A stretch of 62,491 bases of DNA, filler included. It is 14 parts of 14 records of this genome, joined end to end, with 100 filler letters (N's around TTAATTAATTAA, not from the genome) between each part and the next. Parts side by side here need not be neighbours in the genome. Positions count along the whole stretch, not along the records: positions 50,446 to 55,603 come from SRR15195285_10220; 13 more parts are not named here. The stretch is one strand, 5' to 3'. The notes beneath the pieces are model-generated. The model ran no database searches. It had not been told where the DNA came from and was given only the letters and a program-made list of their open reading frames with translations. A program made the position numbers and the translations under genes. Of this stretch, positions 10,505 to 55,703 are shown piece by piece (positions within the stretch are counted from its first letter, which is position 1; every line of letters starts with the position of its first letter).

Positions 10505-13500
10505 ATGACAGCACCGCACGGCCGCGTACGCGTGTCAACGGCATCGGATGTTGTGCGAGCAGGCGCGTGCGTGCGTGCGCTGGTGGGGCTGCTTGTTCAT
10601 GCCAGCATTCTGGCCCGAGCGCCAGCTGGCGCCGTTGAATGGGCGCGCGCATCTGCCGAACAGAATGAGGCCATCGCCCAGGCGCTGCAGCAGATTTGCG
10701 AAGTCAACCCGAACGCCACGATGTGTCCTGAGGCATGTACGAACAAATTTTATCAGGAGCAGCAGGACTCTTGTTCGCAGCTCACCCGAGATATGCGCCT
10801 GCATGGGCGCGCGGGCGAAGCTTGCCCAGATTGGTCGTTTCTTTGCTGCAATCCTGCTTGTCTGGTTCCCCTAGGAGAGATATCGGAGATATATCCAAGC
10901 GACAGCGCATGCTCAGACCGCAATCTTGTTGAGTTAAGCAAAGCATCGGGCGAGATAACGGACGAACAGCACGCTGAAATTACCGGATATATGGTCACAT
11001 CCATGAGTACCTTCAGCCAAGTCGATCGTTCTAAATACTGTTCTCGTGAAACCCCGTTGGTATGCCTTCAATCCATTGGGTCGGAGATAGACTGTGTTGA
11101 GCGCAAACAGCCCTCGAGTAACGTGGGCCAGTGTCACTGCTGGAACGAGACTGCAACGCCGTGTGGGCAGACGGGCATGGAGTGGAAAGGAGTTGACTGC
11201 AGCCATGGGAGTGAGCAATTCACATGGTCGCTGTGAGTGCTTGGAATCTTGCTTGGTTCGATCTTGACACACCCTTCAGCGCGTGCACGTGATAGCTCGG
11301 ATTCTCACGCATCGACCCATGCATTGTGCGCACAAGCAGAGACCTGCGTGACAGCATGATATCCGAGATCCCCGCAAACACTCCTCTACGCAATATGAGA
11401 GACCTTCTGTTTGTGTGAGATCAGCTTGAGTCTCTTCCCTCTGGTCTCTTTTTGCCCGTAACTTGGTGGCTCACGCTCTCCGACTTCGCTGTGCGCTTAG
11501 CTACGTAAGTGGGAACCAAGATTTGGAGACCTATCCGGTCATTAGTATCGAGCGGTGTGACATTGGCTTCTACGAGACAGACGGTGGGCAGGTGTGTGCA
11601 CGCTGTCTCAGCACAGGCTTGAAAGATACATTCTTGCCATTCGCGGGGTTTGTGGCTGCGATCGTCTCAATCGGAACGTTGATTTACCACGTCGCGAGCT
11701 CAGCATGGCGGCCAAGCAACCGGCCTGGCCCGGAATGTGTCGTCCACTGCGGCCGATATCAAAGCGCTGCGGAGGTGGCACAACAGTGGCATGATGCTTT
11801 GGCAATACATCTCGATTTGTCTGCTGAGGAGGTTGCAGTAGACCGCGCTTTCTCATTTGGTATCGAGGTCGGCGACGAAATCGAAGTGCTCGACAAGAGC
11901 GAAATGAAGCGTACGAAACTGTGGTACCATTCGGCGGTGCTAAGGTGGCTACTTTGGGCGGCGCTCGCTGGCGCGCTCTACGCTGCACTAACAAACGCCT
12001 CCAAGACCGATCAGATTGCACGCGCGGTCTCCAATGTAATGGAATACACCATATTCATAGTCTTGTGTTGCTGCGGCCCGTGCTGTGTGTGTTTCGGAAT
12101 CTGGAGACGATCTGCAAAGAAACGTGACAGAGAGCGCTGGTGGCAAGAGGATCTCTCTGGAACTGTGCTGCAGATCGAGCCGCGAGTCGAGGTGTCTTTG
12201 CACGGAGATCCGGGCAGGTGGGAAGTTCCTGCACACAGTTTGCGTAAACTGCCGCCGAGTGCAGTTGGGGCCAACCAAATGCCAGCTCTATGTTTTTGTG
12301 TCACAGAAGATTGGGCCACAGCAGCAACCACGCACTTATCCTGCATATTACCAGCCGAAGCTGCTCCTGGAAAGACACTTCGGATTGATACAGGTCACCA
12401 GGATATTGATATGCCTGTACCTGCCGGTGCACAGCCTGGCGACAAGGTTCGAGTTACTGCAGATGGCTTCGTGGACGACTGTATCCACACTTTGGTACGG
12501 CGCGCTGGAGCTTCCGAGGCACTCTTGCGGCTGGAGAAGGCCGAGCTGGTGGGAGCAGTTAGTGCACTGACAAGCGAACAGGTTGAGCACCTGTCTGCGG
12601 GCGTGATATTCGTCTTGTGCGGTGAATCCGTGCCGAGCTCCGCGAATGTGGTCCGTATACTTTCGCTACTGCACGTCAGCGACCAACAGGTTGTGACTGT
12701 TGATTTGCATGGACAAGTGGATCTTGCAGACCAGGACAAGTTGAGGCACAAAACAGCTGCGCTCAATTATCTCGACAACTTCCTTGCCGCATCTCGCCAC
12801 GACGGTGATCACTTGCAACAGCAAGGTAGGTTCACAGACGCCATGGATGATTCTGTGAATGCACGCGAAGCCCTAGTGGGCGCAGGGTCGCAGCGAACCT
12901 TGCAGCAGGCAGCCACACAGCTAGGCAGCTTGGCGAAGATCGTGACAGCACAGTTGCAACAGAGCTTCGCGTTCCTGAACTTGAACCTAGAGTGGCCATG
13001 GTATCTGCGCCTGCTCGGCAGTAAAATCGGCAGCTGGATTCGGTTTGATTTGCCACAGCTTGTTCCGGTTGCATGCATTGTCGGCGGAGGCAGCATGAAC
13101 CAACGATATGCGATGTTGGTCTGGATGTTAGTGGCAATTCCACTACCGATCATCACCCTCCGCGCGCTCATCAAAAGGAACCGGAAACAGTGGGAAACAG
13201 TTGGCGATGAAGCAGCAGCTGTTCGAGCAGCTCATCAGACCAATTTTGGGTGGGCAGTTTTCACCCTGGTCAGCCCTATGGGGTTTGCAGTGATCGCTGA
13301 CGTAACTGTTCGCAATACGTCGGCTGGAACTTCATCGCCGATGGTGACTTTCGGCTGCATTTGTCTAGCGACGCCGATTGTAGTCCTACTGCCAGGATAC
13401 GCGCTTGTACAATTGAAAAGGGCTCAAATGGCAGGTACCGTTCATTCGCGTGCGTTTGAGTCTCGATTCGGCTGGCTATGCGCACGCTATCGGGCCCGAT

Positions 13501-15541
13501 GTGCGTGGTGGGAGCTGCTGTATCTTGAAGCGCGCTTTGCTACCGCAGTTGCAGGAGCGCTCTCTACGATGCATCCGATGCAAGCAACTCAGCTTATAAT
13601 CGCCATCACTTCGTTCATGCTGTTTGCTCAACTAATCCTGAAACCATTCGCGGAAACAGCAGACGAGGCCCAGCACTGGTCGTCAAACAATAAGATAGCC
13701 GCCGTAGGCTACGTATCCCAGCTTATCGTGCTCGGGTCTGGAATGCTTTCGTTACACATGGATTGGGAAGAGGATCCGCCGGCTGGAAACGCAGAGGCCG
13801 AGATTGGTATCGCGGAAGGCCTAGTTTCTATGTTGACTGTTGTTGCCATGCTGACACCACTTTTCTTGTCGTTCTGGATCTTGCTGATGAGTCGCTCCGC
13901 CGACATCATTGAGGAGGAGGATAGTCCTCGAGACAGTAATGAAACTTACACGCAGAACCCACTGACATCCGATGCAAGCGTAGATGAGGGCACCGAGCCT
14001 GAGGACCTCGACAATTTGGTGCAAGTGAAATCAGTCAAGCTCGTTGACAATACCGAGAGTGAGCTGATGATCGACGGACAAGGCCTGGAGTATACAACGC
14101 TTAGTGCCACATTGTGTCGTGTATCAAAAAGTACAACGAGCAAAGTGGTCCGTACTCTGGCACCCGGAGAAGTGGTGGTAGTTGTCGAAGAAACTTATTC
14201 CAATGGGCACCATCGTGCACGAATCGGAGATCACGAGTGGGTCAGCATTGAGACGTCAACTGGCAAAATAGTTATGCGACCTGGCAGGGTACAATCCGCT
14301 GATCCAAACGCTGGAATGTACAAAGTCATTGCAAAGACACCAGTCCACGAAACGATTGACGTCTTGGACCAAAAAGTGGTTGCGATGCTCAACATCGGTG
14401 AATTTGTCGTAGTGGATAGAACCGCACGTACAGCAACCCAGGAGTCCCATCTGCGAGGCCGGATCGATCGAGGTGGTGGTCTGTTCTACTGGTGTTCCAT
14501 TTCCCTAGGGACACCAGGCTCGTACAATATGCTGAAGACATGTCCTGGGGAGTCACCAGCAGCCTACACGGTCGTTGCAGACACAGCTGTATATTCTGGC
14601 GTATCAGTCGAGTCCAAACAATCAGGCAGCCTTGCCGCAGGTTCAGTTGTTGACGTGTTTGAATTGCTCGAAAGCCCACCAGGTGCTCAAGGCCACGTTC
14701 GAGGGCGCGTCACTGGTACGTAAAGACGATCCCATTAGTACAATCGCACCAGGTCGCAGGCCTGTCTACGGACACGTTGGTAGGCCGCCTGTGATCCATG
14801 TGTGCTGCGTGCTGCCAACTACATGATATTTTTATGCATGTTCCTGTGTACGTAGACAAGGAGTGGGTGAGCATCACCACCACCGAGGGAGAGGAATTTG
14901 TTCGTGCTAATGTTTCGACGCAGGTGCAGCAGATGCAGGTCGTGTGTCCAGTCGGCATATCTTGTGGTGCTCTTATTGCGGTAAACACCCCAGATGGCCG
15001 ACAGATGCAAGTACAAGTGCCACAAAATGTGACTCCGGGTATGCCTTTCTACGTCAATATCATGCCTGCCTCTGCGGCGGCTGGAGAGCCATCCAATTTA
15101 CGCCAGCTCAGGATATTGCACAAGGCTACCGTTCGCGAGTCAGCAAATGTCCGCAGCCGGGAGGTCGGGGTGTTGGTTCCAGGCGAGGTTGTCCCGTGGC
15201 TCGAGGAGGGCATGGACAACAGCAGCGGCCACCTGCGCGTGCGGATTGGTGACAACCAATGGATCAGCCGCGTGACGCCTGGGAATAATGCACTCGCGTA
15301 CGAACCTACCACACCAGGTGTAAGCAAGCTGCAGGTTGTGCAGACAGCTACCGTACGAAGTGGCGCGGGCGTCGACAGCAACAAGGTTGGTGAGTTGACC
15401 AGGGGCACAGTTGTGGTGGCGCATGAGGAGCTTGAGTTAGGTGGGCATGTGCGCGTCCGCATTACCGTGGAACGGGGCCAAGATCAATGGATCAGCCGCG
15501 TGACCGCAAAGGGGGCGCTGTTGGCCGAGCTGTTCGTCTAG
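10505..15541 (+). CDS. Large receptor-like membrane protein: Cys-rich/LRR ectodomain, multi-TM (about 7TM, TRP/GPCR-like) core and five C-terminal SH3b-like repeats
   Basis: LRR cap EWKGVDC plus a short LRR exon LDLRDSMISEIP..; CDIGFY..CARC; core motifs LNLEWPW and RFGWLCARYR..WWELL; repeats of type TVRE..S..VG.L..GE.V..E......R.RI...WIS. Introns at about 11234-11339, 11410-11500 and 14716-14855. Confidence 0.7.
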
Positions 15542-16509: not shown

Positions 16510-19500
16510 TCATACAAGAATGTCGGCCACGTCAATCGCGCTGCCGATGGCCACTTGGAGCTCAGCGATCTGATCTGCGGCGGGAGCAGTGCCGAGGAGC
16601 GTGTGGATGGAGGCCTTGAGACGTGCGGTGCCTTCTGCGCCCCTTCCATCCTTGTCCAAGACGTGCACCTTCAGGTCTCGTAAGCAAAGCACCTCGTACA
16701 GGAACAATCCAAGGTCAGCGATGTAGTCCAAGGCAGACTCGAACGCCGCCTCAGCTTCTTGCGGTCTGCCCAAGAAAGCTAAGCAACGTCCTTTGGACGT
16801 GTGACCCTTCCAATGAGTGATCGGAGCGACCGATCCGGCCTGGGAAAAGTCGGTGCTGATGGCAGCCTCTGCATACAACAACGCTTGATCATACAGCGCA
16901 AGCTTCTCACATACCCACGCAGCCATCGTGAACGAGTTCATGACCGAGTGCATCAGATTTTGACAGCAGTGTGGAAAGCCACCCTTGGAGAAAACGACCA
17001 GGTCCTTGACACTTGGCAACGACGTCGAGATCTCATCGATGCTCAACCCGCTTTCATCGATATCTACCACCAGCAACCATGCCAGCTTCAAGACCCACGA
17101 CCAATGTTCTGCACTGTCGAGGTGTTGACCCATTGTCCTGCGACAGAGGGCAAACAGAGGTAGCACGCAGATAAAATCGGTCAGGATCATTTCAGACTGA
17201 CACAGTGGTTGCATATTTTGCTTACGTATCTCCACGAGGGCGCACAGTTGGAATATAAACCACCATCTTATCGATAAAAGTATCGATCGACTGCCAGTTT
17301 AGACCTGCCTTGCTGAAGAGGGGTCGGCACTGCTCAGAGCGTCCCAATATGTACCCGAATTCTGTCTGGCCAATGGGTTGAAACGTCACGTTTAAGGCCT
17401 CTACAGCTAGCTCGGGATCGTCGACCATACATTCATACAGCTTCAGTGAGCGTTCGAAGCACCGATTTGCAGCCACGAGATTGCCGTAATGAACAGCGAG
17501 ATATCTGGATGGCAGGACCCAGGTAAGACACGGATCTTGGCCACAGGCGATTTCAGTTAGTTTCTTGTGATGTACCTGCACCATGTATGGTCAAATCATC
17601 TGCTGTGCAATGTTCACCACATCAAATACGGGTATCCTCATCTAAGCTTGCGTTTCAAACGGCTTACGTCGTAATTGTAGCGATCGCTTATCCACAACAA
17701 CAGCTCAGCATTTGAACCGAAGATTCCATCCCAGTCAAAGCGCTCGTGACGCAAAGCCATCTCGTAGCATGCGAAACAGGTCAGAGTCAATCCTGCTTGT
17801 AGACGCTGTGTTTCATCTTGAATCACTCGCGCAGCTTTTGAAGCTGCTTCCATCTGCGCATGTAAGATTTAGTTTTTTAAAATATAGATGCGATTTAGTA
17901 ATCTGCGCTATAACTTACAAAGCGCAGAAAAGCCTCTGCAAAAAGGAGTCCATCGTCCCCAATTTCGCCAGTAAATGCCGTCAGGCTTGACGGATAGAAC
18001 AGTGCCATCTCAGTAACAGCTGGAATTTGATCGGCCACTGGGGCGCCCACAAGATATTCCAGGCCTGAGACCGAGTACATCCAGCATGAGTAGTAATGTA
18101 CAACACTGGAGTGCAAGACTGAGTCAACACGTACGCGGCAAAAACCGATAGTCAACCGGGTCAAACTTCGATAGCAGCTGCACCAATACCTCCAGCTCTA
18201 AACGTTCCTCATCTGCGCGATGTTCAGATGCTTCACCAGCCGCCAGTTCTCCGAGAGCATCCATGGCTCTGCGTTCAATCTCAAGCTTCGCAGGTATGTC
18301 ATGACCATCTGTCAAAGCACACCTTCCGGCATTCGCAGCCAGCTTAGCCACGTCGAACTTCCGTCCGTCATCATTCGCCTTCTCCACTAGTTGCAGCAGC
18401 TTTTCGTAGCCGAGAAATCTGCCAGCACTCCTGACGATATCGTCCTGCGGTGTATCTCCAAGCCAATAGTTGATTGCGTGCTGATCGTTCTCCCAGTCAG
18501 AATTCCAGCCATGCTGAATATGCTTGGAGCAGTAATCGCGCACGTAGCGCGATATCAGAGTGTTGCCCGCATTATTCCACTCAGGCGACTTGGAGACGGC
18601 ATCAACTGGCCGAGCGGCACGCAGTAAGTCCACCAGCCTTCGATGAGATTGCCGTAGTTCTTCGTCCGTGTGCTGAGATGCGACGAAGTCGCCAACGATG
18701 TCTGCCGATGGACACGAACAATAAGTTGACGTTGTCAACCAGTTTGTTGTCAATAACTTGGTCGTCACGTTATGACAAGAATGCCATTCGCGAGGTCAAG
18801 GAGTGGAACTCACCGTGCAATGCAGGACGGTCAACTGACCCAAGGACAAGTGACCTGCGAACACGGCTGGTTTGTTACCACGACTGGACTGCCGGCACCA
18901 TTGCACCATTGCACCATTGTAAGACTTACCTGTCGATCAGCTGCTTTATCAAGCGCCGAGTGGTGAGCACGTTGGGACGTTTTCTGAATGTTCCGTCCAG
19001 CTTGGGGACGGCCTCGAACATAATCGCTAATATCAATGGAGGTACCACCGCATCTTCAGGAAGCAGAGCCAGCGCCTTGAACATATGAAGCACGTTCTCC
19101 CGCTGTGGCCCACGGATGCTGTTAAGGCTCGCGCAAATCACAGACTCTTCCACCGTGCGCTCTTTGTCAGCAGACTCTTCCCGCATCATATCTACAATGC
19201 CTTCCCATTCGTCTACTTCAAGGCCCAACCCGATGTCTTGGACAAGTTTGCCCGCTATCGAGATCGATAGAGGCAGGAGCTTGCAGAATTGTACTAGCTC
19301 CCGGGTCTGCGGCGGTACATCGCCGTCAGCACTGAGTCCGGCAGTCGAGAGCAGCATCTCGACGGCTTCCGCTTCTGTAGGCAGCCCGATGGTTACAAGC
19401 TCGGTTCGCATGGAGCTGCTGCTCTGGATCACTTGGTGGACCCGTGAGGACAGCAACACTTTGCCCCCGCTGTCTTCATCGATAAAGTTCAGCAGTTTCT

Positions 19501-21692
19501 CTTGCTCTGGATCCCAGCAATCGTCCAGTACGAGGAGCAACCTCTTCTTCTGCATTGCTAATTGCAAACTTTGCTTACGTTGCGAGTCAGGCTCGTCACC
19601 GGTGAATACGGCACCAGTCAGCTGCTGAAGCACCAAACTTTGCACATGTATCGGCGACGGCGTTTGCCCGAGAGTTACCTGCTCGCATGAATTAGATTCT
19701 CGGAAAATTCAGTGGAAGTAAAATGATGGACGGACGCCTTCTTGGTTTTGATTTCTACTCGGAGGACTAATTTGTCAAAGTACTCACCCATGCGATGGAC
19801 TCAAATTGCTCCCGGACACTGTGTTGCCTCACCAGCCAGCTAGACACTACCGTCTTACCTATCCCACCCATGCCCTGCAACCAGTTTGTTTGCAAACAGA
19901 CCAAAATTCCTGAGCAACACCCGGCAGCGACAGGCCACATGGGTGGCGATTTGATTGTTGCTGTGTTGTTTACCAGAAAGCCAATTCTGTGAGCCTCTCC
20001 GTCGACCAGATGGGAAAGAAGCTCCTTCATGGGCTGAGTCACAAACACACCCAATGGGAGCTCTGGGACATCTGCGGGCACCATTGCTTGGGCGCGTTCG
20101 TCCTCCTTGGACATCATTGCCCGCGAGTCAGGTTGAATTGAGTATGTGTCGTTCTCCTTTTTCAGACGGTCGAGCTCGCCACGTAGATCGCTGACGGAGA
20201 AGTCAGGCGATCCGGACATCTGGAGTTCAAAGTCATCTGACTCGGGATTAGGCGATAGTGCAAGCATTATCTGGCGCATGAGACCGTCAATGCCCTCTTC
20301 TGCCGAAGCCTCATCGGAAATCGGCGTCCACAAGATGCCAGCGGTCAGCAGACCAAGCCACCCGGACGGCGTGTAGTTCTCTTGCACCATCACTGGGACA
20401 ATTGGAATGCCTGTTTGCTGCGCAAACTTTAGCTCCTGCAAAATTTAGCGACGCACAACGGCACGAGAGTGACATCAGGTCTAACAAATATTCGCGCACT
20501 GCTCCTAGCTGCCCATGTCTTCTTCTTCTACTCGAATAGCACGCTCGTGCTAAAAAATGCCCAGTCACGCCCCGAGCGGAACAAAATGAGCATTATGGGC
20601 AAAGGTGGATCGGTTCCTTGCTGAGCTACTCAGCCTGGCAGCTGCGTACTATTATTCCATTTGCATCCACCCCAATGGTAGTGTGTTGCTGCTCAATGAG
20701 ACTAAGGTCAATTGTGAACACCGCAATCCCAAAGTGGCAACGCACCAGCTTGCAGTTGACCGAAGATTCATACTTCTCGGTCATGAATGGGATGATACAG
20801 GCAGCGTTACTGACTCCCTCGGCCATGGAGTCGTAGATGTCGGTTTGCATGCCACCGTCTGTGGGCAGCCGGCGCCACCAGTATGAGCAATTAAATGCAC
20901 ATCATACGAGCTTTTTTGCCAGACCTTTAAGAGGTTAGACGCACCGATGTCCATCCACGTCGGGATGCCCTTTTTGTTCAGCATATCACGTGCGGCTACC
21001 ACCAAGGCCTGGGCGTCCCACTGATATGATAAGATGGCGTGCTTGTCTCCAAATAGGCCTGCTTGCGCGACAGCCACGTTGGCAGTGCCGTAGTGTGCGG
21101 AAACAGGGGTGTCTCTGTCCTTAGCTACGGTCTCACTGTCGCTGAACCCAGCCTTCTCCATGACAAGCGCAATTAGAGCGGCCTTCACGTCATCGGCATC
21201 GTCCGCCTCGTCAATTTTGTCTTCATCAACGCCTGCCTCGGCTGCGCGCTTTTTCAACGCGCGTGGCTTCAACGACTCCAGGTCTTCTGCGAGAGCCGCT
21301 GCTGCCTGTTGGCGTGTGGGGTCGTTCGTAGCTTTCTCGATAATCAGAGCAATAATGGTGGCCTTAACGTCATCAGCGTCGTCTGCCTCATCGAGCTTCT
21401 CTTTGTCCACACCAAGCTCCCGAGCACGGTTTTTGAGAGCACGGGGTTTCAGCGTCTCCAGCTCGTCTCGAAGAGCCTGCGCTTGAGAGGACTTTGCATT
21501 TTCTGCTTCTTGCTTCAAAATAAGGTCCACTAGTGTAGCCTTCACATCATCCGCATCGTCGGCTTCGTCGATCTTGTCCTCGTCGACGCCGACCTCCGCG
21601 GCCCGCTTTTTAAGTGCCCGAGGCTTGAGGGACGAGAGTTCTGTGCGCAGCGCTGCAGACTCCGGCGGGGTCCCCTCCGGAATGGACGCCAT
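16510..21692 (-). CDS. NLR-like STAND protein: three SAP/HeH-like repeats, TIR, NB-ARC (APAF-1 type), helical region and TPR; multi-exon
   Basis: TIR HAILSYQW..WMDI/DGG..SVNCKL/ELKFA (introns 20859-20944 and 20436-20745); P-loop GMGGIGKT; Walker B LLVLDDCW; KVLLSSR; CKLLPLSISIAG (GLPL-equivalent); LH/D (MHD-equivalent, split by an intron near 18815); TPR KGRCLAFLGRPQEAEAAFESAL. Confidence 0.85.
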
Positions 21693-22330
21693 GTGATCCC
21701 TCTGGCAGCGGGCGCTCTCGACTGGCAGCGGGTGCTCTCCCAGCCTCTCTGCAACCCTCGTACCACCACCCAGTACCAAGTAGTTTTACACGGCCTCAGG
21801 AGCAAAATACAGCCGCAAGGCGCAGCGGACCCGGCGCCTCGTGCTCCTCCCCGGGGGGCGGTACGTAGGTGCCCCAAGCGCTCCGTCTCGGGATCCGTCG
21901 CGCCGGCCTCTAGAGGGCTAGCTAGCGCGCGGACTGCGCGCTCATCCACGTCTCCAACGCGCGGTCTCGCGCGGCACGTCTGAACTGGACGTGATCGAGA
22001 CCTTCGGAGCAGGAGGAAGAGGCACGAGAANNNNNNNNNNNNNNNNNNNNNNNNNNNNNNNNNNNNNNNNNNNNTTAATTAATTAANNNNNNNNNNNNNN
22101 NNNNNNNNNNNNNNNNNNNNNNNNNNNNNNTGAGCGGCTAGCAGAAGAGCTAAGACAGTGTAAGGCTGAGACTGGCAACGACGTTGAGATGCGCAGTAAG
22201 CTCGTCCAGAAGGTGGTGGCACAGGCCAAGGTAGCTGGAGGTGCAGCGTAAAAACATTTATCTGACAGACTAATCGAATCTTTGTAAAACGCAGCAGCGC
22301 GATGCTACGGCGCTCGGCCACGAAAGAGCC

Positions 22331-30439: not shown

Positions 30440-33400
30440 ATGGCGCCGCTGGGCGCTGGCAGGGCTAAGAAAAGTGGGTATGCGCCGGTATCGATGACCG
30501 ACGGTGTGGACAGCGCGCAGGCGGTGAGCGGCTCGTCCCACCAGCTCTCCGGCCACAACGCGATGGGCGAGGTCGAGGCGCATTGGTCGGGGCTGTCGCC
30601 TGAGGAAGCCCGCGACTTCCCAGGCTGCCCATCCAGTCGTGTGCTGTTTCCGGAGTACGACGCGGGCTTTTTCACGTACCGACTCCGCTGAATTGCTCTA
30701 TTGGTCACTGATCGGCTGCGTTCTACACAGTTATATGGCATTCGCTGCATGGAGCAGGTACTGGTCGTATCAGTGGATGACGCCGCTGATGAAGCTTGGC
30801 AACCGCTGCCACCTGCAGGACTCAGACGTGTGGGCGATCCACCCGAAGGAAGCTTGCTACACAAACGGCCCGCCGATGCGCGAGAAGTGGCAGGAGGAGC
30901 AGCGGGCGGCGCACGCCGCAAGTCGCGAGCCCACCATTGGCTGGCCGATCTTCTACACCGTGCGAAAGCACATGGCCAAGGCCGGTTGTGGCAAGCTGCT
31001 CGGCGATGGCTTCAAGCTGATCAACCCCTTCGTACTGCGCCAGATACTCTTAGTCGTCGAAGGCAACAAGGATGCGATCGTTGAGGCGGACAGGGCGTAT
31101 CTGCTCGCGCTTGTGCTGTTCATTACCACGTGGTTGCAAGTCATCATCGACCAGCGCTACCAGTACTACGTCCAACGCGTCGGCTTCCGCACGCAGTGTG
31201 CCATGATCTCGGTGCTATACCGCCAGATCCTGGAGCTTACTCCTGGCGCTCGCGCTGCGTACTCGAGCGGCAAGATTGCGAATCTGATGTCGACTGACTG
31301 CGCCAAGGTCCAGACAGTCGTTGCCCAGTTCAATCACCTTTGGCTTGTTCCGGTTCACTTCATCCTTGCCCTCTCGCTGCTGATTTGGACGGTTGGTCCT
31401 GCCGGGTTTGCTGGTCTTGCAACGACATTGCTTTTGATACCACTTGGAAAGAAGTTGGTTGCGAAGCTCAAGAGCATTCGAAAGGACGCTTTGAAGTGCA
31501 CGGATGAGAGGCTCAAGCTGACGCAGGAGGCACTGTCTGGGATCAGGATCGTCAAATTCATGGCGTGGGAGCATAGCCTTACAGAGAAAATCGACCGTGT
31601 GCGGACGAAAGAGCTTGCGTTGCTCCGTGCCGCTGCAATCTACAAAGCACTGAACTTTACACTAATGGCTTCCTCGCCAATGATCATCTGCATCACGACC
31701 CTTACAGTGTATGGTGCACTCGGTGGAAAGCTCACAGCCTCGACGGCTTTCACTACGTTCTCTTTGCTCAACATTCTGAAACAACCGATTGAGATGATGC
31801 CGAACGTCATTACCGACGTTTTTGTGGACGGGAAAGTTTCGCTGGCACGACTGACGACCTTCCTGTCAGAGCCAGGCATGGCTCGGTACGTGCAGCCGAT
31901 AGACTCCGCTGGCCGGAATAGCGACCTGGTGTTGGACATTCAGGGAGCATCGTTTGCGTGGCAGCCACTGCCAAAAAAGATTGCCTGGTCGGGTCAGGAG
32001 CGCAGTGGCGGCCGAGGCGGGGGCGGTCGTGGTGGTGGCAGGGGGAAAAAGGACACTAGCAAGCCGAACCAAAAGAGTGACGCTGAAAAGGAAGCCGATC
32101 GGCTGCTCCAGAAGGCTAAGGAGAACCAGGGTAGACCGGTCTTGACAGATATCTCACTCACGGTTAAACGCGGGCAGCTTTGCTGCATTGTCGGGGGGGT
32201 CGGGTGTGGGAAGAGCAGTTTCATTCATGGCATACTTGGTGAGATGGCGCTAACACCCGACGGCGGTCGCGTGTGCGTGGATGTCAAGATATCATACGCC
32301 CCACAGAGCGCATTCACCCTTAACGATACCGTACGCTCCAACATCTTACTCGGTCTTCCATTCGTCCAAAAACAATACGACGAAGTGGTGGAGGCGTGCG
32401 CGTTGCGCTCAGATTTTGCGCAGCTGCCCTCTGGAGATTTAAGCCAGATAGGAGAAAATGGTACACCAATCAATCTGATATACACTGCAACAATTGAGCA
32501 ATCTGATGTACAACTAATGTATTTCATACTGGTGCTGATGCTTGCAGGCATTAATCTCAGCGGTGGTCAACGACAACGCATCGGTCTTGCACGCGCTGTA
32601 TATGCGGCGGTTGTCGGTGACGCAGAAATGTTGCTTTTAGACGATCCGCTCTCTGCTGTCGATGCACATGTCGGTGCTCACATCTTTGACCAATGCATCA
32701 ATGGTTTGCTCCGCTCTCGGCACCTCACCGTGATCATGCCAGTCCACAATCTGCAATTTCTGCAGCGTGCGGATCACGTTGTCTATCTCCACCAGACCAA
32801 TGGGACAATTACGGAGCAGGGCGATTACGAGGATCTGATCCAGGCAGGTGGTGAGTTCGCGAAGATGATGGAGACTTTTGCAAGCGTTTCTTCAAAGGAT
32901 GGCGAGGCGTCTCCAGCTTCTCCAACCCGTGCCGCTGAGCTACTCGCTGCAGCCAAGGCGCATGTCGGTGGGCCAACGCATAAAGCGATCAAGCGGCTAT
33001 ATCATAATCTCAAGGAAGATCCTGGCAATGTGATCATTAAGGAGGCTATCAAATTGGCGGAGACAGAGGAGATGGAGGATGATCCTGGTAAAAGTGATAC
33101 CACGAAGGGTGATAAAAACAAACAAGAGGGCACGCAGAAGACCGAAAAGAAGACAGAGAAACAAGGCAAGCTGATGACCGTCGAGGAAAGAGCGGTTGGC
33201 GGAGTCGATCGGGGTGTTTGGCTGTACTACGCGACCACATGTGGCCTGACACTCAGCTGGATAGTTTTCTTTTGCTACATTGGCGGAATGGGTGCCAAAG
33301 TATTGACTGACTGGTGGATGTCGCGCTGGTCGGTTGACGACACAAGCGTGCTCATTGGGTACGAGGAAAGCTGGACGGTGATCGATCGTACCGTTGGGTT

Positions 33401-34915
33401 TCTTTTTGTGTATGGGCTGCTCGGAGTGTTTGTGGTTGTGCTCAACGGTATCAAGACAGTCGTCGTATGCGTGATCGGACTCAAAGCGGCACGGACATTG
33501 CACTCAAGCATGCTCCAGTCGCTGCTTTGTGCGCCAACATCCTTTTTCGACCAGGTACGTCAGCCCACCATTCTGTCAACACTACGTTGAATTTGCACAT
33601 GTGTAAATTGCGTGCCGTGTATTCACTCTCAGACCCCGGTTGGACGAATTCTCAATCGTTTTAGCTCGGATATGCAGTCCATCGACATGGGCCTCACCGA
33701 TCAGTTCATAGCTTTTGCTGAGCAGCTTTTCACCATCATTGGTGTTTTCTCCGTGATTCTTGTGGTCTACTTGCCCTTTCTCGTGCTTGTACCGCCACTG
33801 TTCATGTTCTACAGCAATATGCAGCGACGCTATCGCAATGCATCACGCGAGTTGAAGCGGCTCAACTCCATTTCCAAGTCACCAATATTCTCACACTTCC
33901 AAGAGTCGCTAGCTGGGCTGACCGTCATCCGCGCTTATGCAGTGACTGACCAATTCATCGCAAAAAGTGATGGCAATGTCAACAACAACATGCGCTTCCA
34001 GCTCGTAGGTATGACAGCTGGGCGTTGGATGACTTTTCAGCTGAACTTCTCAGCAGCTTGCATTGTTGGCGTGGTTGCGATGTCCATCACGCTCAACCAT
34101 GAAACGGTTGATCCTGGTACCACTGGGCTCGCACTTACATATGCCATGCTGTGCACCCGCACGCTTGGTATGATCATCAGGTTCTTCACTGACCTGGTGA
34201 GCAGCTCTCCCTGGAGTCCATTCATTTTTGAGCTCCCTAGGTCCTTCACTGGCCTGCTCCCACTGCTCGTTTGCTGCACAGGAGCTGCAAATGAACTCGA
34301 TAGAGCGCGTGAAATACTACATTGATATTGATCACGAAGCATTGTTTGATATTCCAGAAACGGATCCTGGCCCGCAGTGGCCTCGACAAGCAAGGGTTGC
34401 ATTTAGCGACGTTTGTGCACGCTATCGGCCCGGGCTTCCATTGGTTGTCAAGGATTTATCTTTTCACGTCCAGCCTGGTCAGAAAGTTGGCGTGGTTGGG
34501 AGGACCGGTGCGGGGAAGTCATCCGTAATGCTGCTGCTGTTTCGAATTCTCGAGCTGGAGAGTGGGAAGATCGAGATTGATGGCGTGAACATTGCTACCC
34601 TCGGTTTGCGTCGGTTGCGCAAAGCCATTGCTATGTTGCCGCAGGATCCTACACTCTTTGCTGGCACTGTCCGCAACAACCTCGACCCGTTCGGTGAAGC
34701 TAGTGACACACGTGTGTGGGAAGCACTGAGCCGAGCGCAGATGGAGGATGCTGTCCATGCGTTGCCCAATGGTCTGGATAGTGAAGTCGGTGAAGGCGGT
34801 TCGGCATTTAGTGTAGGGCAGAGGCAACTGCTTTGTCTTGCGCGAGCGGTGCTGCGAGACTCGAAGTTGCTCATCATGGACGAGTGCACAGCATCAGTGG
34901 ATGTCGCGACGGATT
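30440..34915 (+). CDS. ABCC/MRP-family full-length ABC transporter (last exon lost in the gap)
   Basis: NBD1 [20 protein letters not shown] and [24 protein letters not shown]2 [17 protein letters not shown] and MDECTASVD. Introns 30676-30757, 32461-32547, about 33555-33632 and about 34196-34281. Confidence 0.95.
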
Positions 34916-34989
34916 GTGAGCACACTGCTTATTGGCCGTCGGGCTGCCGTCACATGGATTCTGCTCTCACCCTGTTTGCGGGCGCGCGC

Positions 34990-35019
34990 GTGTGTGTGTG
35001 TTTGTGTGTGTGTGTGTGT
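34990..35019 (+). repeat. (GT)n microsatellite at the contig end, inside an intron
   Basis: GTGTGT run up to the gap. Confidence 0.9.
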
Positions 35020-47204: not shown

Positions 47205-48890
47205 ATGGACGGCTCCGAGTCGGACGAGATGGAGGTGGACGGAGAGGTTTCGCCGGCTGCTCCGGCCGAGACGAGCGGGGCGATCGCGGACAAGAAAGTG
47301 CTGCCGAAGACCGTGCAGCGGTGCGTGACCAATCCTAGCCGCAACCCTGCATACTGCTTCTCTGCGCCCCTGCCTGCAAGGCACACGCTCCGCGAGCTGT
47401 GGAGCTGACGAGACTGTGTGCACTCGTGGCGTGGTAGGCGCCGCCCCTCGCTATCCAACGTGCTTCAGGGCGACAGCAAAGATCCGACTGTGCAGCAGGA
47501 GCTGGCCATGAAGCTCGCCAACGCCGCTGCCGACATGGCCAATGACGCAGGCGGCGCGCCGCGGTACGCGCAGAAAAGCAGCACGAATATGGAGGATGCC
47601 GGCGTGAACTCTCCAGACTCCACACAGATAATCTTGATGCCGCTGATCCTGGTGTTGACGTTTATTCTGTTCATCGTGGTCACGGTCAAGCAGCGGCAGT
47701 TCACCGAGGCAGTCATTGACCGGAACAACTTCGAGATCTACTCCGAGCGCGAGGCAGAGCACGAGCTGCTGAACGAGCCGATTGGCGCCTATGTCGGGTG
47801 TGTGGGGATCATCTTTGCACTCATGTACACCTCTGTGTACAACGACGCGCAGGTCCGGCAGTCCGAGATCCGCAACGCTCTGGCGCAGGAGGCGGGAGGC
47901 GTTCACACGGCCATGCTGCTCGTGCGGACCCTGGACGCGGACGATAACATCAACAAGACACGCGCGCTGCTGTTGTTCTCCTCATACATCGAGAACTTAG
48001 CGACGGAGATTTTCTTCAAATCCCGGAGTCCTAAGAACCACGAGCAGGTGCTCCACTCATCAATCGAGTCTCTCTATGCCGCGATCCCATTCCTTGCCGA
48101 GATCGCGTCGGACGGCGAAGGCGACGAGATGGACCGCGTATTGATCCAGCGGGTGGTGGACGCTTTGAATCGCGTGTGCGAGGCGAGGCATCGACGCGTC
48201 TCAGAAGAACGCCACTCGGTGTCGATGATGACATTCGTGTTCTTGACGGTTCTTGCTGCCTTCACCTTCTATGGCATATCGTTTCTGCAGATGGGAGCGG
48301 GAGGTTTGACCTCATCGGTGGTGATTATGACCGGCGTATCGCTGCTCATGAGCATGGCCGTGCTGGTGAGTTGCGTTGACTTCTGTAGGCACGAGGCACC
48401 AGACCTACGATGAGACTCAGTCCCTTCCTTAGACAGTCTGTGAGCTTCGATAGCTGCGACAGCAGGACCCGTTTTTTGACACTCACCCGATACACCTCCA
48501 CCTAGCAAATGAAACTTACTGCTGGCTCTGACGCCTTTATTTGTCATGGCCGTTGCCATGCTCGTCAATACCTCACAGGCCGACGTGGCGATACCATGGA
48601 AAGGGTTCATTGTCGTCGACACCGGAATCTTTGTCTCGATCCGGAAGGACATCAGCCTTGTGCTGGACCAGGAGCAGGAGGACACTTTGATGGGCGGCGT
48701 CGGGAAGCGCAACAGTGTGGTGATGGGAGAGATAGACGACGATTTGAGGAAACGGATGGCATCGGGCGTGGCAATCAACCAGCATCAACATATCGCTGTT
48801 GCTATGGCGAAGAGACGGGGCTCCACGGCGGGCATGACCAGTACTGACTTCGAGCGCCCCAAGTCGTCCGGCAGCGGCCCAACACCGTGA
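47205..48890 (+). CDS. DUF4239-like membrane protein (3 exons)
   Basis: VGIIFALMYTSVYNDAQ..ALAQEAGGV, R.RR, a TM hairpin, then L/ADVAIPWKGFIVV. Introns 47321-47437 and 48366-48578. Confidence 0.7.
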
Positions 48891-50445: not shown

Positions 50446-50849
50446 GACTCACTTCATGACTCACTTTTCGTGACGAAAATGCTTGGCTGTGGCGCGCCAG
50501 CGACGCATTGTACCCCTGTATCTACCTCTGCTGCTCTACAGGTCGCGCTGCGCGGAACGCAAGCTTCGCCCAGAGACGAGATGCAGGGGGCACATCGGGC
50601 GATGGCCGCTGCCAGTGTCAGTCTGCGTGTTATCCCTTGCATCAGGCCGGACGGGAGAACCAACCGGGTCTATTTATGAATCGCTCCACACTTGAGATGC
50701 TTCTGTCGACGATTGTGGAACAGGGGGCAGATGGGTTGGTCATCTGGGGAGCTAAGCCTGACGCAGTGCCTGGGGAGAAGTGCGAAGTGTTTGAAAGCTG
50801 GCTAAATGATTGTGACGTTGGGCCCACTGTTGGGGGCATTAATACATGA
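50446..50849 (+). pseudogene. 3' part of a hyaluronidase-like GH56 gene, apparently disrupted by indels
   Basis: ENAWLWRASDALYPCIYL and TIVEQGADGLVIWG match GH56 WLWxxSxALYPSIYL and GAxGxVIWG. The segment between them fits better in another frame, and there is an in-frame TGA at 50457. Confidence 0.6.
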
Positions 50850-50978
50850 TTCTGCCTCAGCGTGACGTTGCTGCGCTGCTTGCCTGAACCTGTCGCTACT
50901 CTGTACTCAGCTGCTTGCCGGCAAAGTCGCCGGTTGCGGTCCTCCCGGGTCTTCTTGCATATCTCCTCTATCTCTGAT

Positions 50979-53900
50979 TCACAGAGAGTCTGTCTGTCCC
51001 GAGTATGTGTGCAATGATTTGCGTACATCCGCCGCCCTCTGGTTCCAATTTGCGTGTCGCGTGGCCTCGGTAGCACGCTCCAGAATCTCTTTTAAGTCAT
51101 CGGCGTCTCGGTGTGTCTTTACCCCTTGGAAGAGGCAGATTGCCGCCACAATTCCACGGACGTGGCATTCTACAGACATGGAGTTCTGTTGCACAACCTT
51201 CTGCGCACCATGGAGGGAGGAGTCCTCTGTCAAGTCCTGAAGCATATCAGCGGCCTTGCTTAGCACTGCCTTTGGCTCAATCGTCGGCAGAGAGTCGATT
51301 CCCTGAAACGCCGCGGTCGCTGAGGCAAAGAAGTCGCTCTCAGCATTTTCACCCACCAGCAGCGGCAAGACGGCCTTGACTGCACCTCTCTCATGAAGCT
51401 CGAGCGTCATGAGCCACTCCAGTAGAACGTTGTCGACTACCGTCTCGCTGGCACCGAGCATCGATCGAAGCGCTCCGGTCGAGACGATTGGCATGACAAC
51501 AAGAGAATTCGAAAGCCCCTCAAGAAATCCCTTATCCCATCGCTGGCCGTCGATCAGCCGAGCCTGATCAAGGTAGATGCGCAGGCGTCGCTTGTCGCCG
51601 CTGCAGTCCTCTGACGGCTTCTCCACCGAGGACAGCGCATCGAAAAGACGTCTGGCAAGTGGTGCATCTGATTGGACTCTGTAGCTTATGAACACATCGT
51701 ACTGCAGCTGCACCACGGACTCCAATCGATCGAAATAGCTGCGCAGCAATTCCATATCGTCACGGCTTGCCAGCCCAAGCTGGAGCAAAAGAAACGCTCG
51801 CCTCTCTTGAGACAGTAAATCGGCCTCGGCTTCCGCCTCGGCACCTTTTTGCACGCTGAAAAGGGCCGAGCTTAAGAGGCGCCATTTTGCGTGTACGGCG
51901 ACGATAAACATCACAAGGACAGCTAATACACTCGATAGCAGCGCCGTATCGTAGATGGTAATGACGTTGTCCTGTTGTGCTGTCGATGCACTTCCATCGC
52001 GCGCATTCACTCCGAAAACGGCTATTGCGGTCGTCACGGAAGCAAAGATCTGTATCTCTGTTGCCAATTTAAGCAAATTGTCAGAAGGGTGCTTGTAGGG
52101 CTCGAAGTAAACCTGCAACGAGAGTGACAACATAGCAACGAAGACTGCAATGTAGAGCTGCAGGGTTGTGCCACGCCCTGCCACAACAAGCAAACCGACC
52201 AGGAACAATTTTCGGAGGAGGTCGACCCCTTCCCAGTAGTTGAGATGACTGTGAAACGCATTGATCAAGAAGCTGTACTGGCTGGCCGTCGCCACATCAC
52301 AAATGGCGGAGGCCGCTTCCTTTTCATTGCACTCAAGTTCTGCGGCAACCCTTGTCGCAACAAACTTGTCAACTACTGAGACCTGGTACTTCTTCTTATT
52401 GTTGACAATCATGAAAACTAGGCCACCTGGAGTTCCGAGACAGAACAAGACGACGACCAATCCCGCTACGGCCTGGTATGTAAAGTGCTCCGATGTGTAG
52501 CAGTCCTCCTCAAAGGCAGTCACTAGGACGCTGAACCTGCCGAGGTTTCGGCAGACGAATAGGGCAAACGTCCTATTGCAAATTCCAGGGAAGAGAAGAA
52601 ACAATACCAAGAAAAGCTCCTCGTTCAGGCGCGCAGATTCTTTGGCAATGGCAAACCGAACCAGGACGAATCCTACGCAGAGCGCAGGTAGGACCAGTAC
52701 TCGTATCACCCACGCGGCATAAAACGAGACGGACACCACGCACCTCACTTGTAAGATGGATTCCACGTCGACGACCAGCACAGCCATCGCGTCGAATAAG
52801 CGTTTTGTATACCCTGGAAACTCGGTATCAAGCACAATACCTAGGTGGGTTACAATTTGCAGGTAGCCGACGATGATGCGACCGGGTTGAAGGACCGAGT
52901 GAAACAGTAAGTACACGGTCGTCGAGCCACAGATTGTAATCGGACTGTACTCGGTAGACTCGGGTGTGGCCTCGCTGCTGTTGGCTGTGGCATTAGAAAC
53001 GGGATTGGTACGCGCGTGGTCTCCGTCTGCGTCTTCGTTTGCACTGTCGGCACGCTGAGCCTCTGAGGAAATTACTACAGCTTTTGCTTTGCCCACATCA
53101 ATCCAGAGCTTGACCATCAACAACACGCTTGCGATCACAACAAGCAAAGGCAGTGCACTGTCAGTTGCTGTGCATGGCTCGCACTGGTGGCCACTGATTT
53201 GCGTGTAGCCAGTGGCGCACACAGCGCAAAGAACGCCGGTGTACCCATGCTTCGTATGACAGCGTCCGCCTGCTAGACATGCTTCCGGGTGAGGACACCG
53301 AAATAGTATTGGAGAGATTCCATCAACCAGGAAACTCTCAGGCAATTGCGGTGATGACCAGCCAGCGCTGACGGCTGGGCCACCTTGATCGTTGAGCTCT
53401 AAGCATGTCCCACTCGCGGAGAGAGACGTACATACCGCCGTGTTCGCGTTCGGTTCGTTCCAAGAGTAATCCTCTACTTCATATGGAATGCAGCTGATTG
53501 TCCTTCCAGCAGTAGAGTTGTACGTCCCCACATCACACAAACATCCGGTGTTGTCGTTCGTTGATCGAGTGCCCTCAACACATGGTAGACAGATTGTCTG
53601 TCCTGTGTCAGCGGCGTACGACCCGTGATCACATGGATTGCAAATACCGATCATACTGGCCTGGCCCGGTGAGCAGGGCACACATTCCGTCGCGGCTTCG
53701 TTTGGCTCAGTTCCCGGAGCACAGACGTAGCACCGGTCTCCGTCGCCGACTTCGTTGACTGCGCATCTGGTACAAAACCGAGAGCTGTCGAATAGTTGAC
53801 AGCTGTATCCAGGCGCGCACGGTAGCGTGGTGCACGATTCAAGTCGGCCTCCTTCCAACACGACGTTGTTGCCCATCTCTGCTCTTTCGTCCACGGCAGC

Positions 53901-55603
53901 AAATGAAGTGTTTTGTACAGCGACACTAGGCACAGACGCGGTCCAGATTTGAGCTCCGACACCAGCACTGTTTGAGCTGAAAACGCAGTCCGTTATCATC
54001 GCAGAGCCCGTTGTCATAATTGCCAATGCGCCACCTTGCCCAGTACGCACTGAGAAGTCAGTGTGCGACCACAAGTACGATAGCCCATCGAAACGGCAAG
54101 TGGGCAGCGTTCCGACGGCACAGGGACACACGACGTGCCCAGAGTTTTTGGATCCCTGATTGCAGCCACCTTTCTCTCTTTGGAAGCCGTTGGATGGGTC
54201 CCGTGGATTCTGGGTCACACCTGGCGCATTGCGATTATCACTAAATCGAGGGTATACGCGAGGGACCACATCAGGTATGTCTATCCATCCATCTCCTTCC
54301 CAGATCGGCATCACTTGCTGTGTTCCCAGACGGACGCCGTGCCAGAGACGGTACCGCCCTTCAGGCAGGCTGACCACCTCGGTGTACAGGTGGAACGGGT
54401 AATACTGATCCACTCCTTGGATTTCTACGTCCATGCCATGCTGTGGGCTAATCAGTGTCCCGTTATCCCGATGGTAGACTCCACCCGCCGCAAGTAAATC
54501 ATCATCTGCAGGCCCAATATACCACACAGGCGACGCGTATTCGCGTCCATCGCTTGGAAAGCCACCAGCGCCGGAGAACAAACGCACGGTGATGTCCTGA
54601 ACTGGTGCATCGGTTCGGAGCACAGCGTTGCGATTGAATACGATAGATACCATCTGAAGCGCCCCTTCAGCACGGTAGGTAAGTGCTCCACCGGTGTGGA
54701 AGGCACGATTACCCTCAAATACGCTGTGCGAAATCTCAGCTCGGCCTGGCCCTTTGATTGCAAGAGCTCCTCCTGACGCGGCCATGTTTTCGACGAAGGT
54801 GCAGTAGCTGATCTGAGCAAGCGTACTGACATACAGCCACACCGTCCCAAATGCTGCGCTTGTGCCCTGATTCTCTGCCATGGTCCCACTGTGCGCTACG
54901 TGCGTGTGCTTGAGGGTGACCGAATCCACCCAGAACATGATGATCGCTAAGTACTCGTGAGTGGGATCCTCTCCGATTACTCTATTTACCACCAGGTTGT
55001 CTGTGGTGACGTTGAAGGTGCCCGAGTGCAGGCTCTGCTGGTTAGAGAACCAAAGACCATGAAACTGAAAATGGACGTCTTCGACAAGCACGTCCTGATG
55101 CAAAATATCCATGAAAGCATCCTCTCTCGCATCCATACATGCATTCACGCCAAATCCGTTGATGATCAACCCAGTGTGGTGTGAGCTATGAGAGTGCGAG
55201 ATGATTGTTCGGATCATGTGGAACTTGCTGTCAGCACCATACATGAGGTTGTCGCCCCGGATATTGCAATACAAGAGACCATTGACCACCACGCCGATAT
55301 AAGCACCGTTGTCAAAAAACTGGCTGTCTTCCACGATAATCCGGATCGGCCACGCGTTATTCAATCTCATGACTCCGCCTGCCCACACTGCAACATTTGC
55401 CCAAAACGTCGAATTCGTGATCCGGATTTCGAGACCGCCGCGACCTCCATCAGGGTGACCGCCGACCTCACCCTGCGCAGGGCGCGCACTGTCAAGGTAG
55501 TACCGCCCATCAACAGCGAATACCCCGCCTGAGGTCGCGAAGTTGTGATCAGCAACGCAGTGATCGAACACGATCTTCGCGCCGTGGCCGCCGTTGTACT
55601 GCA
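50979..55603 (-). CDS. Receptor with Pmp-like beta-helix ectodomain, Cys-rich (GCC2/TNFR-like) repeats, about 7TM core and cytoplasmic TIR domain (5' truncated)
   Basis: FxxN..GGA repeats; CxxCxxG repeats; GYTGVLCAVCATGY; GYLQIV and FLINAF..YWEGVDLLRK, PYK..DNLL; TIR YDVFISYR..IYLD..WDKGFLEGL..VMPIVS..DNVLLEW. Confidence 0.85.
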
Positions 55604-55703
55604 NNNNNNNNNNNNNNNNNNNNNNNNNNNNNNNNNNNNNNNNNNNNTTAATTAATTAANNNNNNNNNNNNNNNNNNNNNNNNNNNNNNNNNNNNNNNNN
55701 NNN

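Follow-up and report, generated by a model that had tools for sequence, protein, structure and literature searches.

A multi-pass membrane protein of a marine protist with a predicted SARM1-like TIR domain, and the candidate receptor superfamily around it

The window analysed here, a stretch of 62,491 nt of marine protist DNA, consists of 14 contigs (3.0–6.1 kb) joined by 13 linkers, each made of an N-run, TTAATTAATTAA and a further N-run. One of these contigs carries, on the minus strand, the greater part of a gene for a large protein in which a predicted nine-helix membrane module connects a Pmp-like and Cys-rich ectodomain with a cytoplasmic TIR domain. An earlier note made from the sequence alone had proposed a surface receptor with several membrane passes and a TIR domain at this place, and the proposal is borne out by an AlphaFold2 model and by fold searches. 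The protein can be read as a ligand-activated receptor of the cell surface whose TIR domain would cleave NAD+ on clustering, a mechanism which we regard as rather probable, and its membrane module is shared by a large superfamily in which sensing heads and signalling tails are interchangeable.

The gene and its TIR domain

The receptor contig occupies positions 50446–55603 of the window (5158 bp, SRR15195285_10220). Its frame, with a first full codon at 55601 and a TGA stop at 50979–50981, is open for 1540 codons, confirming the single uninterrupted frame of more than 1500 codons that had been claimed for it. At 55604 the N/TTAATTAATTAA linker begins, and the contig thus ends before the 5' end of the gene is reached. 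The remainder is available from P0002, a protein of 1992 aa in a public eukaryote protein set, which derives from a 28-kb contig, is identical to the translated frame (P0001) over all 1540 residues and adds 452 N-terminal residues to it. In marine and seawater metagenome runs the contig was found, whole or in part, in 19 rows from 17 studies, and five rows contained at least half of its words. All 15 pieces obtained from one run (X1) were at least 99% identical to it, one of them extending 589 nt past 55603. Taken together, the metagenome contigs from several studies cover the contig without any joint being seen, and the single-base variants between runs indicate a widespread natural population. 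In addition, one metatranscriptomic library contained two short contigs of identical sequence (151 and 217 nt), which are not proof of transcription, as such libraries may contain DNA.

A source in which linkers connect a series of short contigs does invite the suspicion of a chimeric assembly or of a read-through of separate genes. Against it stand the 1540 codons without a stop, the identical P0002 from the 28-kb contig of another assembly, the joint-free coverage by metagenome contigs of several studies, and six other proteins from four sources (P0003–P0008) which share the domain order of P0001. Such an artefact is extremely improbable and was rejected: because of the open frame, the identical P0002 and the metagenome contigs of at least 99% identity without joints, the frame is a real, intron-free piece of a natural marine protist genome. 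The features of the receptor are as follows, in residues of P0001.

50979–55601, minus strand: 5'-truncated receptor coding sequence (P0001), 1540 codons plus stop, equal to P0002 residues 453–1992 (tblastn, 100% identity over 1540 aa)
53967–55601, minus strand: ectodomain part 1, with Pmp-like FxxN...GGA[ILV] repeats, residues 1–545
53334–53966, minus strand: ectodomain part 2, Cys-rich, ephrin-receptor-like/TNFR-like by weak profile matches, residues 546–756
53202–53333, minus strand: DUF7630, a Cys-rich stalk immediately N-terminal to the first transmembrane helix (TM1), residues 757–800 (33.8 bits, cut-off 27)
53100–53168, minus strand: predicted TM1, residues 812–834, followed by a disordered acidic loop (835–891) predicted to be cytoplasmic
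51891–52928, minus strand: predicted TM2–TM9 module, a divergent relative of PF06011, residues 892–1237, with a helical cytoplasmic insert at 1079–1113
51711–51848, minus strand: conserved juxtamembrane helical hairpin, predicted cytoplasmic, residues 1252–1297 (model helices 2–24 and 30–47)
51048–51710, minus strand: predicted SARM1-like TIR domain with a family-specific helical insert, residues 1298–1518, delimited by fold comparison (model residues 48–268)
51546–51548, minus strand: codon of Gly1352 in the BB-loop (LIDGQRWD), aligned with SARM1 G601 and invariant in the family
51417–51419, minus strand: codon of Glu1395 in DNVLLEW, predicted to be the catalytic Glu by its alignment with SARM1 E642

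The TIR domain had been placed at about 51350–51700 in the earlier note; its presence is upheld, but the predicted fold gives it a larger extent, of about 51048–51710. The two motifs on which that placement was based, FISYR (beginning at 51692) and DNVLLEW with its conserved Glu, were both located. The cytoplasmic part was modelled with AlphaFold2 from an alignment of P0001 residues 1251–1540 with 25 relatives (A1, 26 sequences), with a predicted local distance difference test score (pLDDT) of 87.5 and a predicted template modelling score (pTM) of 0.79. With this model, Foldseek gave three matches below E 0.001, all of them plant TIR domains (L6, Roq1, RUN1), and VIA-align gave Z-scores of 14.6 for the TIR of RUN1, 13.8 for C. 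elegans TIR-1 and 13.4 for the TIR of human SARM1, the latter with a root-mean-square deviation of 2.6 Å over 140/140 residues. In the VIA-align listing, the titles of 48 of the 50 entries name a TIR domain or a protein that contains one, those of 8fex and 7m5h being silent on the matter. These scores confirm the TIR fold of the model, which carries a helical insert, since the 221 model residues cover a core of about 140 residues.

As regards the sequence, SARM1 was reached only by the family profile: a single-sequence phmmer search of the TIR region against the PDB gave nothing meaningful, and among solved structures the profile of A1 had its best match in the TIR of SARM1 (E 0.003). In A1 the Gly of LxDGxRWD is invariant and the Glu of DNVLLEW is kept in at least 90% of the 26 sequences; they align with a Gly and a Glu of SARM1 separated by 41 residues, the same interval as between G601 and E642, which are named in the PDB titles of SARM1 mutants. 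It is established that E642 is the catalytic Glu of SARM1. The TIR family PF01582 gave no match in P0001 at E<=1. By predicted fold and by residues, the C-terminal domain belongs to the enzymatic TIR superfamily, as a SARM1-like TIR with the catalytic signature. The helical hairpin preceding it accompanies this TIR type, and is also matched, from query position 455, in the soluble kinase protein P0135.

The membrane module, its relatives and the ectodomain

Hydropathy analysis of P0001 gives many hydrophobic segments, and nine long helices are present in the AlphaFold2 model (pLDDT 83.8, pTM 0.80) built from a second alignment, which combined P0001 residues 800–1262 with 30 relatives (A2, 31 sequences). 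In P0001 numbering, helices 1–5 run over residues 812–856, 892–924, 960–986, 990–1013 and 1037–1074, and helices 6–9 over 1123–1141, 1146–1166, 1172–1200 and 1207–1261. The count of about seven spans given earlier thus has to be corrected to nine predicted helices, from the model and from hydropathy and charge. Across the family, counted as K+R against D+E, the loops modelled inside are net positive (4.0/2.0 after TM1, 3.4/2.0 between TM3 and TM4, 3.6/2.6 after TM5, 3.5/1.0 after TM9), and those modelled outside net negative (2.4/3.6 between TM2 and TM3, 2.1/4.5 between TM4 and TM5, 1.4/2.7 between TM8 and TM9). Conserved loop cysteines occur only in loops predicted to lie outside (C954 in 26/26 sequences, C1017 and C1034 each in 27/29). 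The domain context points the same way, with kinase, WD40, ankyrin and EF-hand tails in paralogues and, in P0008, an EF-hand pair inserted in the TM1–TM2 loop; a weak RRM match also lies between the last membrane helix and the TIR of P0004. From charge bias, loop cysteines and domain context the ectodomain is predicted to be outside and the TIR cytoplasmic, in agreement with the earlier note, which had named an extracellular TIR as a ground for giving up its proposal. Since this arrangement requires an odd number of spans, nine spans probably accommodate all the helices, and seven would be obtained only if the short pair 1123–1166 were re-entrant.

The kinship of the module was sought in Pfam and among known structures. 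Matches to the TRP family PF06011 at E<=0.01 were obtained with 15 of the 31 sequences in A2, the best at 5.1e-9, and the cut-off of this family is exceeded by the relatives P0007 (35.9 bits), P0024 (29.4 bits) and P0149 (30.3 bits). This is the only family link of the module. We read the module as related to PF06011, most plausibly as a divergent sister group, and neither as a member of that family nor as a G protein-coupled receptor (GPCR). Of the TRP/GPCR-like bundle of the earlier note, the TRP half thus survives through the relatives, whereas the GPCR half was dropped, with no 7tm Pfam family matching at E<=1 and nine helices predicted. Microbial rhodopsins and GPCRs match the membrane model at background level (Z <=6.8, Foldseek E >=0.54).

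According to PMC8618638, PF06011 comprises fungal TRP-like Ca2+ channel candidates, and pkd2, trp1322 and trp663 of S. pombe are named TRP-like channels. The S. pombe proteins Pkd2, Trp663 and Trp1322 have been modelled as consisting of a signal peptide, an N-domain outside the cell, nine transmembrane helices and a tail in the cytoplasm (10.1101/2022.08.11.503631). This layout of N-domain, nine helices and C-terminal tail is common to the receptor and to the PF06011 proteins (S. pombe Pkd2, Trp663 and Trp1322, yeast Flc, A. nidulans TrpR); unlike theirs, its ectodomain is not of the ML-like lipid-binding type and its tail is a TIR instead of a disordered coiled-coil, and the kinship is very distant. 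A literature search on PF06011 returned titles on fungal channels or animal sensory genes, plus one on human TMEM18.

The window contains a second long frame of related character, at 11430–14720 on the plus strand (1097 aa), which scores 32.7 bits with PF06011, above the cut-off, and aligns to the A2 profile with an hhalign probability of 86% (E 4.8e-6). By these profile scores it appears to be a paralogue, though a distant one, of the receptor module; a TIR was not detected in it.

When P0001 residues 800–1540 were compared with 1.84 billion representative proteins, 3971 proteins matched at E<=0.001, of which 768 reached E<=1e-10. Among the best 150 representatives, 19 had one match spanning the module (query <=440) into the TIR (>=555). 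A word-based homologue search with the membrane module gave 4 proteins. A Pfam scan of 30 long representatives found, after the module, TIR_2 in six, a kinase in four, WD40 in one and EF-hands in one, P0051 being counted under both TIR_2 and kinase since it carries module, kinase and TIR in one chain. An ankyrin+kinase tail also occurs at the position of the P0001 TIR, and EF-hands are joined to the module in P0008 and P0061. The heads preceding the module are also varied, including CUB, leucine-rich repeats (LRR), MAM, LamG, beta-helix, FG-GAP, PDC sensor, EGF and DUF285. In the environmental protein P0043 (2340 aa), CUB and LRR (88.7 bits) are followed by the module and by TIR_2 (55.3 bits), so that head and tail would resemble those of a TLR while the body is multi-pass. 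P0009 and P0135, both of them soluble kinase proteins, share the TIR type of the receptor and its helical hairpin; together with P0051, these kinase-TIR proteins may be partners or alternative outputs. By these matches the receptor belongs to a large modular superfamily built on this membrane module, with interchangeable heads and tails. As leads only, and not as evidence, the Protein Atlas gave clusters combining Ephrin_rec_like and TIR_2 (score 0.91), with Haptophyta as the commonest phylum, and Chlam_PMP clusters of ciliates (score 0.77).

The Pmp-type beta-helix of the earlier note is retained in part. Residues 1–545 contain five GG[AV][ILVMF] motifs, a number reached in 0/2000 shuffles, and three combined FxxN..GGA motifs, of which no shuffle had more than one; the profile matches of P0001, in contrast, are below threshold (Chlam_PMP 13.8 bits, cut-off 20.6). 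POMP_repeat scores 9.8 bits in P0002 and 16 bits in the homologue P0005, with a cut-off of 15. We infer a parallel beta-helix in this part of the ectodomain. The Cys-rich character of the ectodomain is clear, with 26 Cys in residues 520–840 and the DUF7630 match, and DUF7630 stands at the same place in P0003, P0005, P0007, P0031 and P0037; a literature search on DUF7630 found no paper. Ephrin_rec_like matches P0001 below its cut-off (E 0.0022), and a weak match of this Cys-rich part to the mastigoneme-like protein Mst1 was also obtained (E 0.012).

Proposed mechanism and competing explanations

The complete protein would have some 2000 aa and comprise, from N- to C-terminus, a signal-peptide-like start, the Pmp-like and Cys-rich ectodomain with its DUF7630 stalk, TM1, a disordered cytoplasmic loop, the eight-helix PF06011-related module, the helical hairpin and the cytoplasmic SARM1-like TIR. 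The ectodomain would bind an outside ligand, for which a particle, a glycan, a virus or a bacterium are candidates, and the signal would travel through the nine-helix module or cluster it. TIR domains would thus be brought together and NAD+ cleavage switched on, the outcome being a cADPR-type (cyclic ADP-ribose) signal or a local depletion of NAD+, so that the receptor would work as a functional analogue of a Toll-like receptor (TLR) with an enzymatic TIR and a multi-pass chassis. SARM1, plant TIR-type nucleotide-binding leucine-rich-repeat proteins (TNLs) and bacterial TIR proteins are activated by oligomerisation. It is on this ground that clustering is proposed to start NAD+ cleavage, together with the observation that 4 of 29 tested protist TIRs with the conserved Glu made cADPR in E. 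coli (10.64898/2026.04.20.719644). A two-copy complex prediction of the cytoplasmic part scored 0.00, but was run without controls or a family alignment and has no bearing on TIR self-association.

Several points weigh against this interpretation. The same study gives no product for 25 of the 29 TIRs, so that the conserved Glu is no guarantee of activity (10.64898/2026.04.20.719644). P0001 itself scores 23.6 bits with TIR_2 (PF13676; residues 1293–1413, E 7.5e-5), under the cut-off of 28; its close homologues P0003 (34.8 bits), P0005 (32.0 bits), P0006 (34.6 bits) and P0007 (34.0 bits) exceed it, and the shortfall is therefore one of score and not of fold. With PF06011 it reaches 11.2 bits (E 0.16), the cut-off being 28.5, and the isolated module matched 0 Pfam families at E<=0.01, so both assignments lean on the relatives and on the predicted fold. 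The membrane model had no Foldseek match in the PDB at E<=0.001, and its best VIA-align score against 48,161 chains was Z 7.5, a background value for models made of helices; the fold of a known channel, transporter or GPCR can therefore be neither assigned to it nor excluded. Moreover, helices 1123–1141 and 1146–1166 may not each span the membrane, and TM2 is weakly hydrophobic (family mean Kyte-Doolittle value 0.59). Finally, the hydrophobic, signal-peptide-like start was read by eye and from P0002 only, and the receptor may reside in an internal membrane instead of the surface.

Attention could be centred on the membrane module instead, which would then be a Ca2+-permeable, possibly mechanosensitive channel like Pkd2 of fission yeast, with the TIR as a regulatory appendage; an NAD+-derived TIR product might gate the channel in cis, or its Ca2+ might control the TIR. 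The PF06011 matches in 15 of 31 relatives, the description of PF06011 proteins as fungal TRP-like Ca2+ channels (PMC8618638), the identical nine-helix layout of Pkd2 (10.1101/2022.08.11.503631) and the EF-hands of P0008 and P0061 all favour it. Nevertheless, the kinase, WD40 and ankyrin tails borne by the same module are more in keeping with a general receptor chassis than with a channel gated by nucleotides; neither a known site for nucleotide binding nor a known pore motif was identified in the module, and no solved channel structure matched above background (best Z 7.5). A channel-centred role is regarded as unlikely. The same low probability is given to a catalytically silent TIR that would signal as a scaffold, through TIR–TIR contacts with a cytosolic TIR adaptor, in the manner of animal TLR and MyD88. 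The soluble kinase proteins P0009 and P0135, which share the TIR type and the hairpin and are possible partners, agree with a scaffold, as do the 25 of 29 protist TIRs without product (10.64898/2026.04.20.719644); on the other hand, the nearest relatives in sequence and fold (SARM1, TIR-1, plant TNL TIRs) are enzymatic, and the Glu and the BB-loop Gly are strongly conserved.

The receptor might also serve a purpose other than immunity, such as adhesion, mating, prey capture or nutrient and mechanical sensing, with the TIR as a general signalling output. CUB, MAM, FG-GAP, EGF and PDC sensor heads, common in adhesion and environmental sensing, would suit such a sensor, and so would the very large size of the superfamily (3971 representatives at E<=0.001). 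Characterised TIR domains are, however, overwhelmingly tied to defence or cell-death signalling, and membrane TIR genes of Gephyrocapsa huxleyi respond to virus infection (PMC12489294), so that a non-immune role is thought quite improbable, below either of the two previous accounts. A ligand-activated surface receptor with an enzymatic TIR is thus the account that we prefer.

Known TIR systems, other genes of the window and significance

The receptor TIR resembles those of SARM1, TIR-1 and plant TNLs in its predicted flavodoxin-like fold (Z 13.4–14.6) and in the alignment of BB-loop Gly and catalytic Glu. It differs from those of SARM1 and the plant TNLs in being tethered to a multi-pass membrane protein, and not to ARM-SAM or NB-ARC-LRR, and in bearing both a helical insert and, on its N-terminal side, the conserved hairpin, and its activity is putative. 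The receptor follows the logic of TLR and IL-1R, in which a large domain for recognition outside the cell is anchored in the membrane and joined to a TIR in the cytoplasm, and some relatives of the receptor even bear LRR. Whereas TLRs are single-pass, it has nine predicted helices and a TIR of the TIR_2/SARM1 type, and its Pmp-like and Cys-rich ectodomain, unlike that of TLR and IL-1R, gave no LRR or Ig match at E<=1. By span number, ectodomain type and TIR subtype, the receptor is not a TLR.

In the accessible portion of the G. huxleyi study, TIR genes with extracellular regions or several transmembrane helices are reported to respond to virus infection (PMC12489294). Multi-helix TIR proteins are mentioned there in passing, with no membrane, ectodomain family or superfamily described in that portion; its example, cogent1101_i1, is single-pass, and the multi-helix ones are merely listed in Table S9, which may include relatives of the receptor. 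Literature searches on multi-pass or transmembrane TIR proteins, protists, haptophytes and domain architecture gave no title describing this family. Prior description of the architecture in other protists, named in the earlier note as what would count against it, is thus touched upon in that study, no other description having been found, and the receptor family with the nine-helix module is apparently undescribed.

The earlier note also joined the receptor to an NLR in a two-tier system of surface and cytosolic TIR signalling. An NLR-like gene with NB-ARC and TPR does lie at 16513–20444 on the minus strand of another contig (16113–22030), with NB-ARC frames at 18929–19708 (57.3 bits) and 19770–20444 (25.7 bits) and TPR repeats at 16513–17298, its splitting over frames suggesting introns or frameshifts. 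Its upstream frames (20784–21785 and 21545–22030) gave no TIR match at E<=1, however, and the two-tier proposal is weak, as the linkers deprive the order of contigs in the window of any information on linkage. An ABC transporter (ABC_membrane and ABC_tran) extends on the plus strand across 30528–35019, in frames 30528–33587, 33591–34322 and 34201–35019, and is probably a full-size one interrupted by introns or frameshifts. A bestrophin-like frame is found at 47409–48410 (plus strand, 59.2 bits); bestrophins are listed among the genes expressed in virus-resistant G. huxleyi (PMC12489294).

A bolder possibility, to which we attach slight credence, is that of a self-contained sensor-enzyme-channel, in which the outside ligand would activate the TIR and its cADPR or ADP-ribose isomer would open the attached TRP-like module for Ca2+. 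If so, one polypeptide would fuse what plants distribute over TNL, EDS1 and helper-NLR channel, or what bacterial Thoeris distributes over a TIR protein and a membrane effector. More broadly, marine protists, chiefly haptophytes as far as the Atlas leads go, would use the nine-helix module as the main chassis of their receptors, in the role that single-pass receptor kinases have in plants and TLRs in animals.

TIR signalling is now regarded as an ancient immune chemistry common to bacteria, plants and animals, and to our knowledge almost nothing is known about the way in which free-living protists feed signals into it. A SARM1-type TIR wired to a huge outside domain through a multi-pass module would represent a third solution beside single-pass TLRs and cytosolic NLRs. 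Furthermore, the module would define a very large, apparently undescribed superfamily of marine-eukaryote receptors in which both the sensing heads and the outputs (TIR, kinase, WD40, EF-hand) can be exchanged, offering candidates for the sensing of viruses, bacteria or prey in ecologically dominant plankton, and the receptor itself would make it possible to test whether messengers derived from NAD+ are linked to a TRP-like membrane protein.

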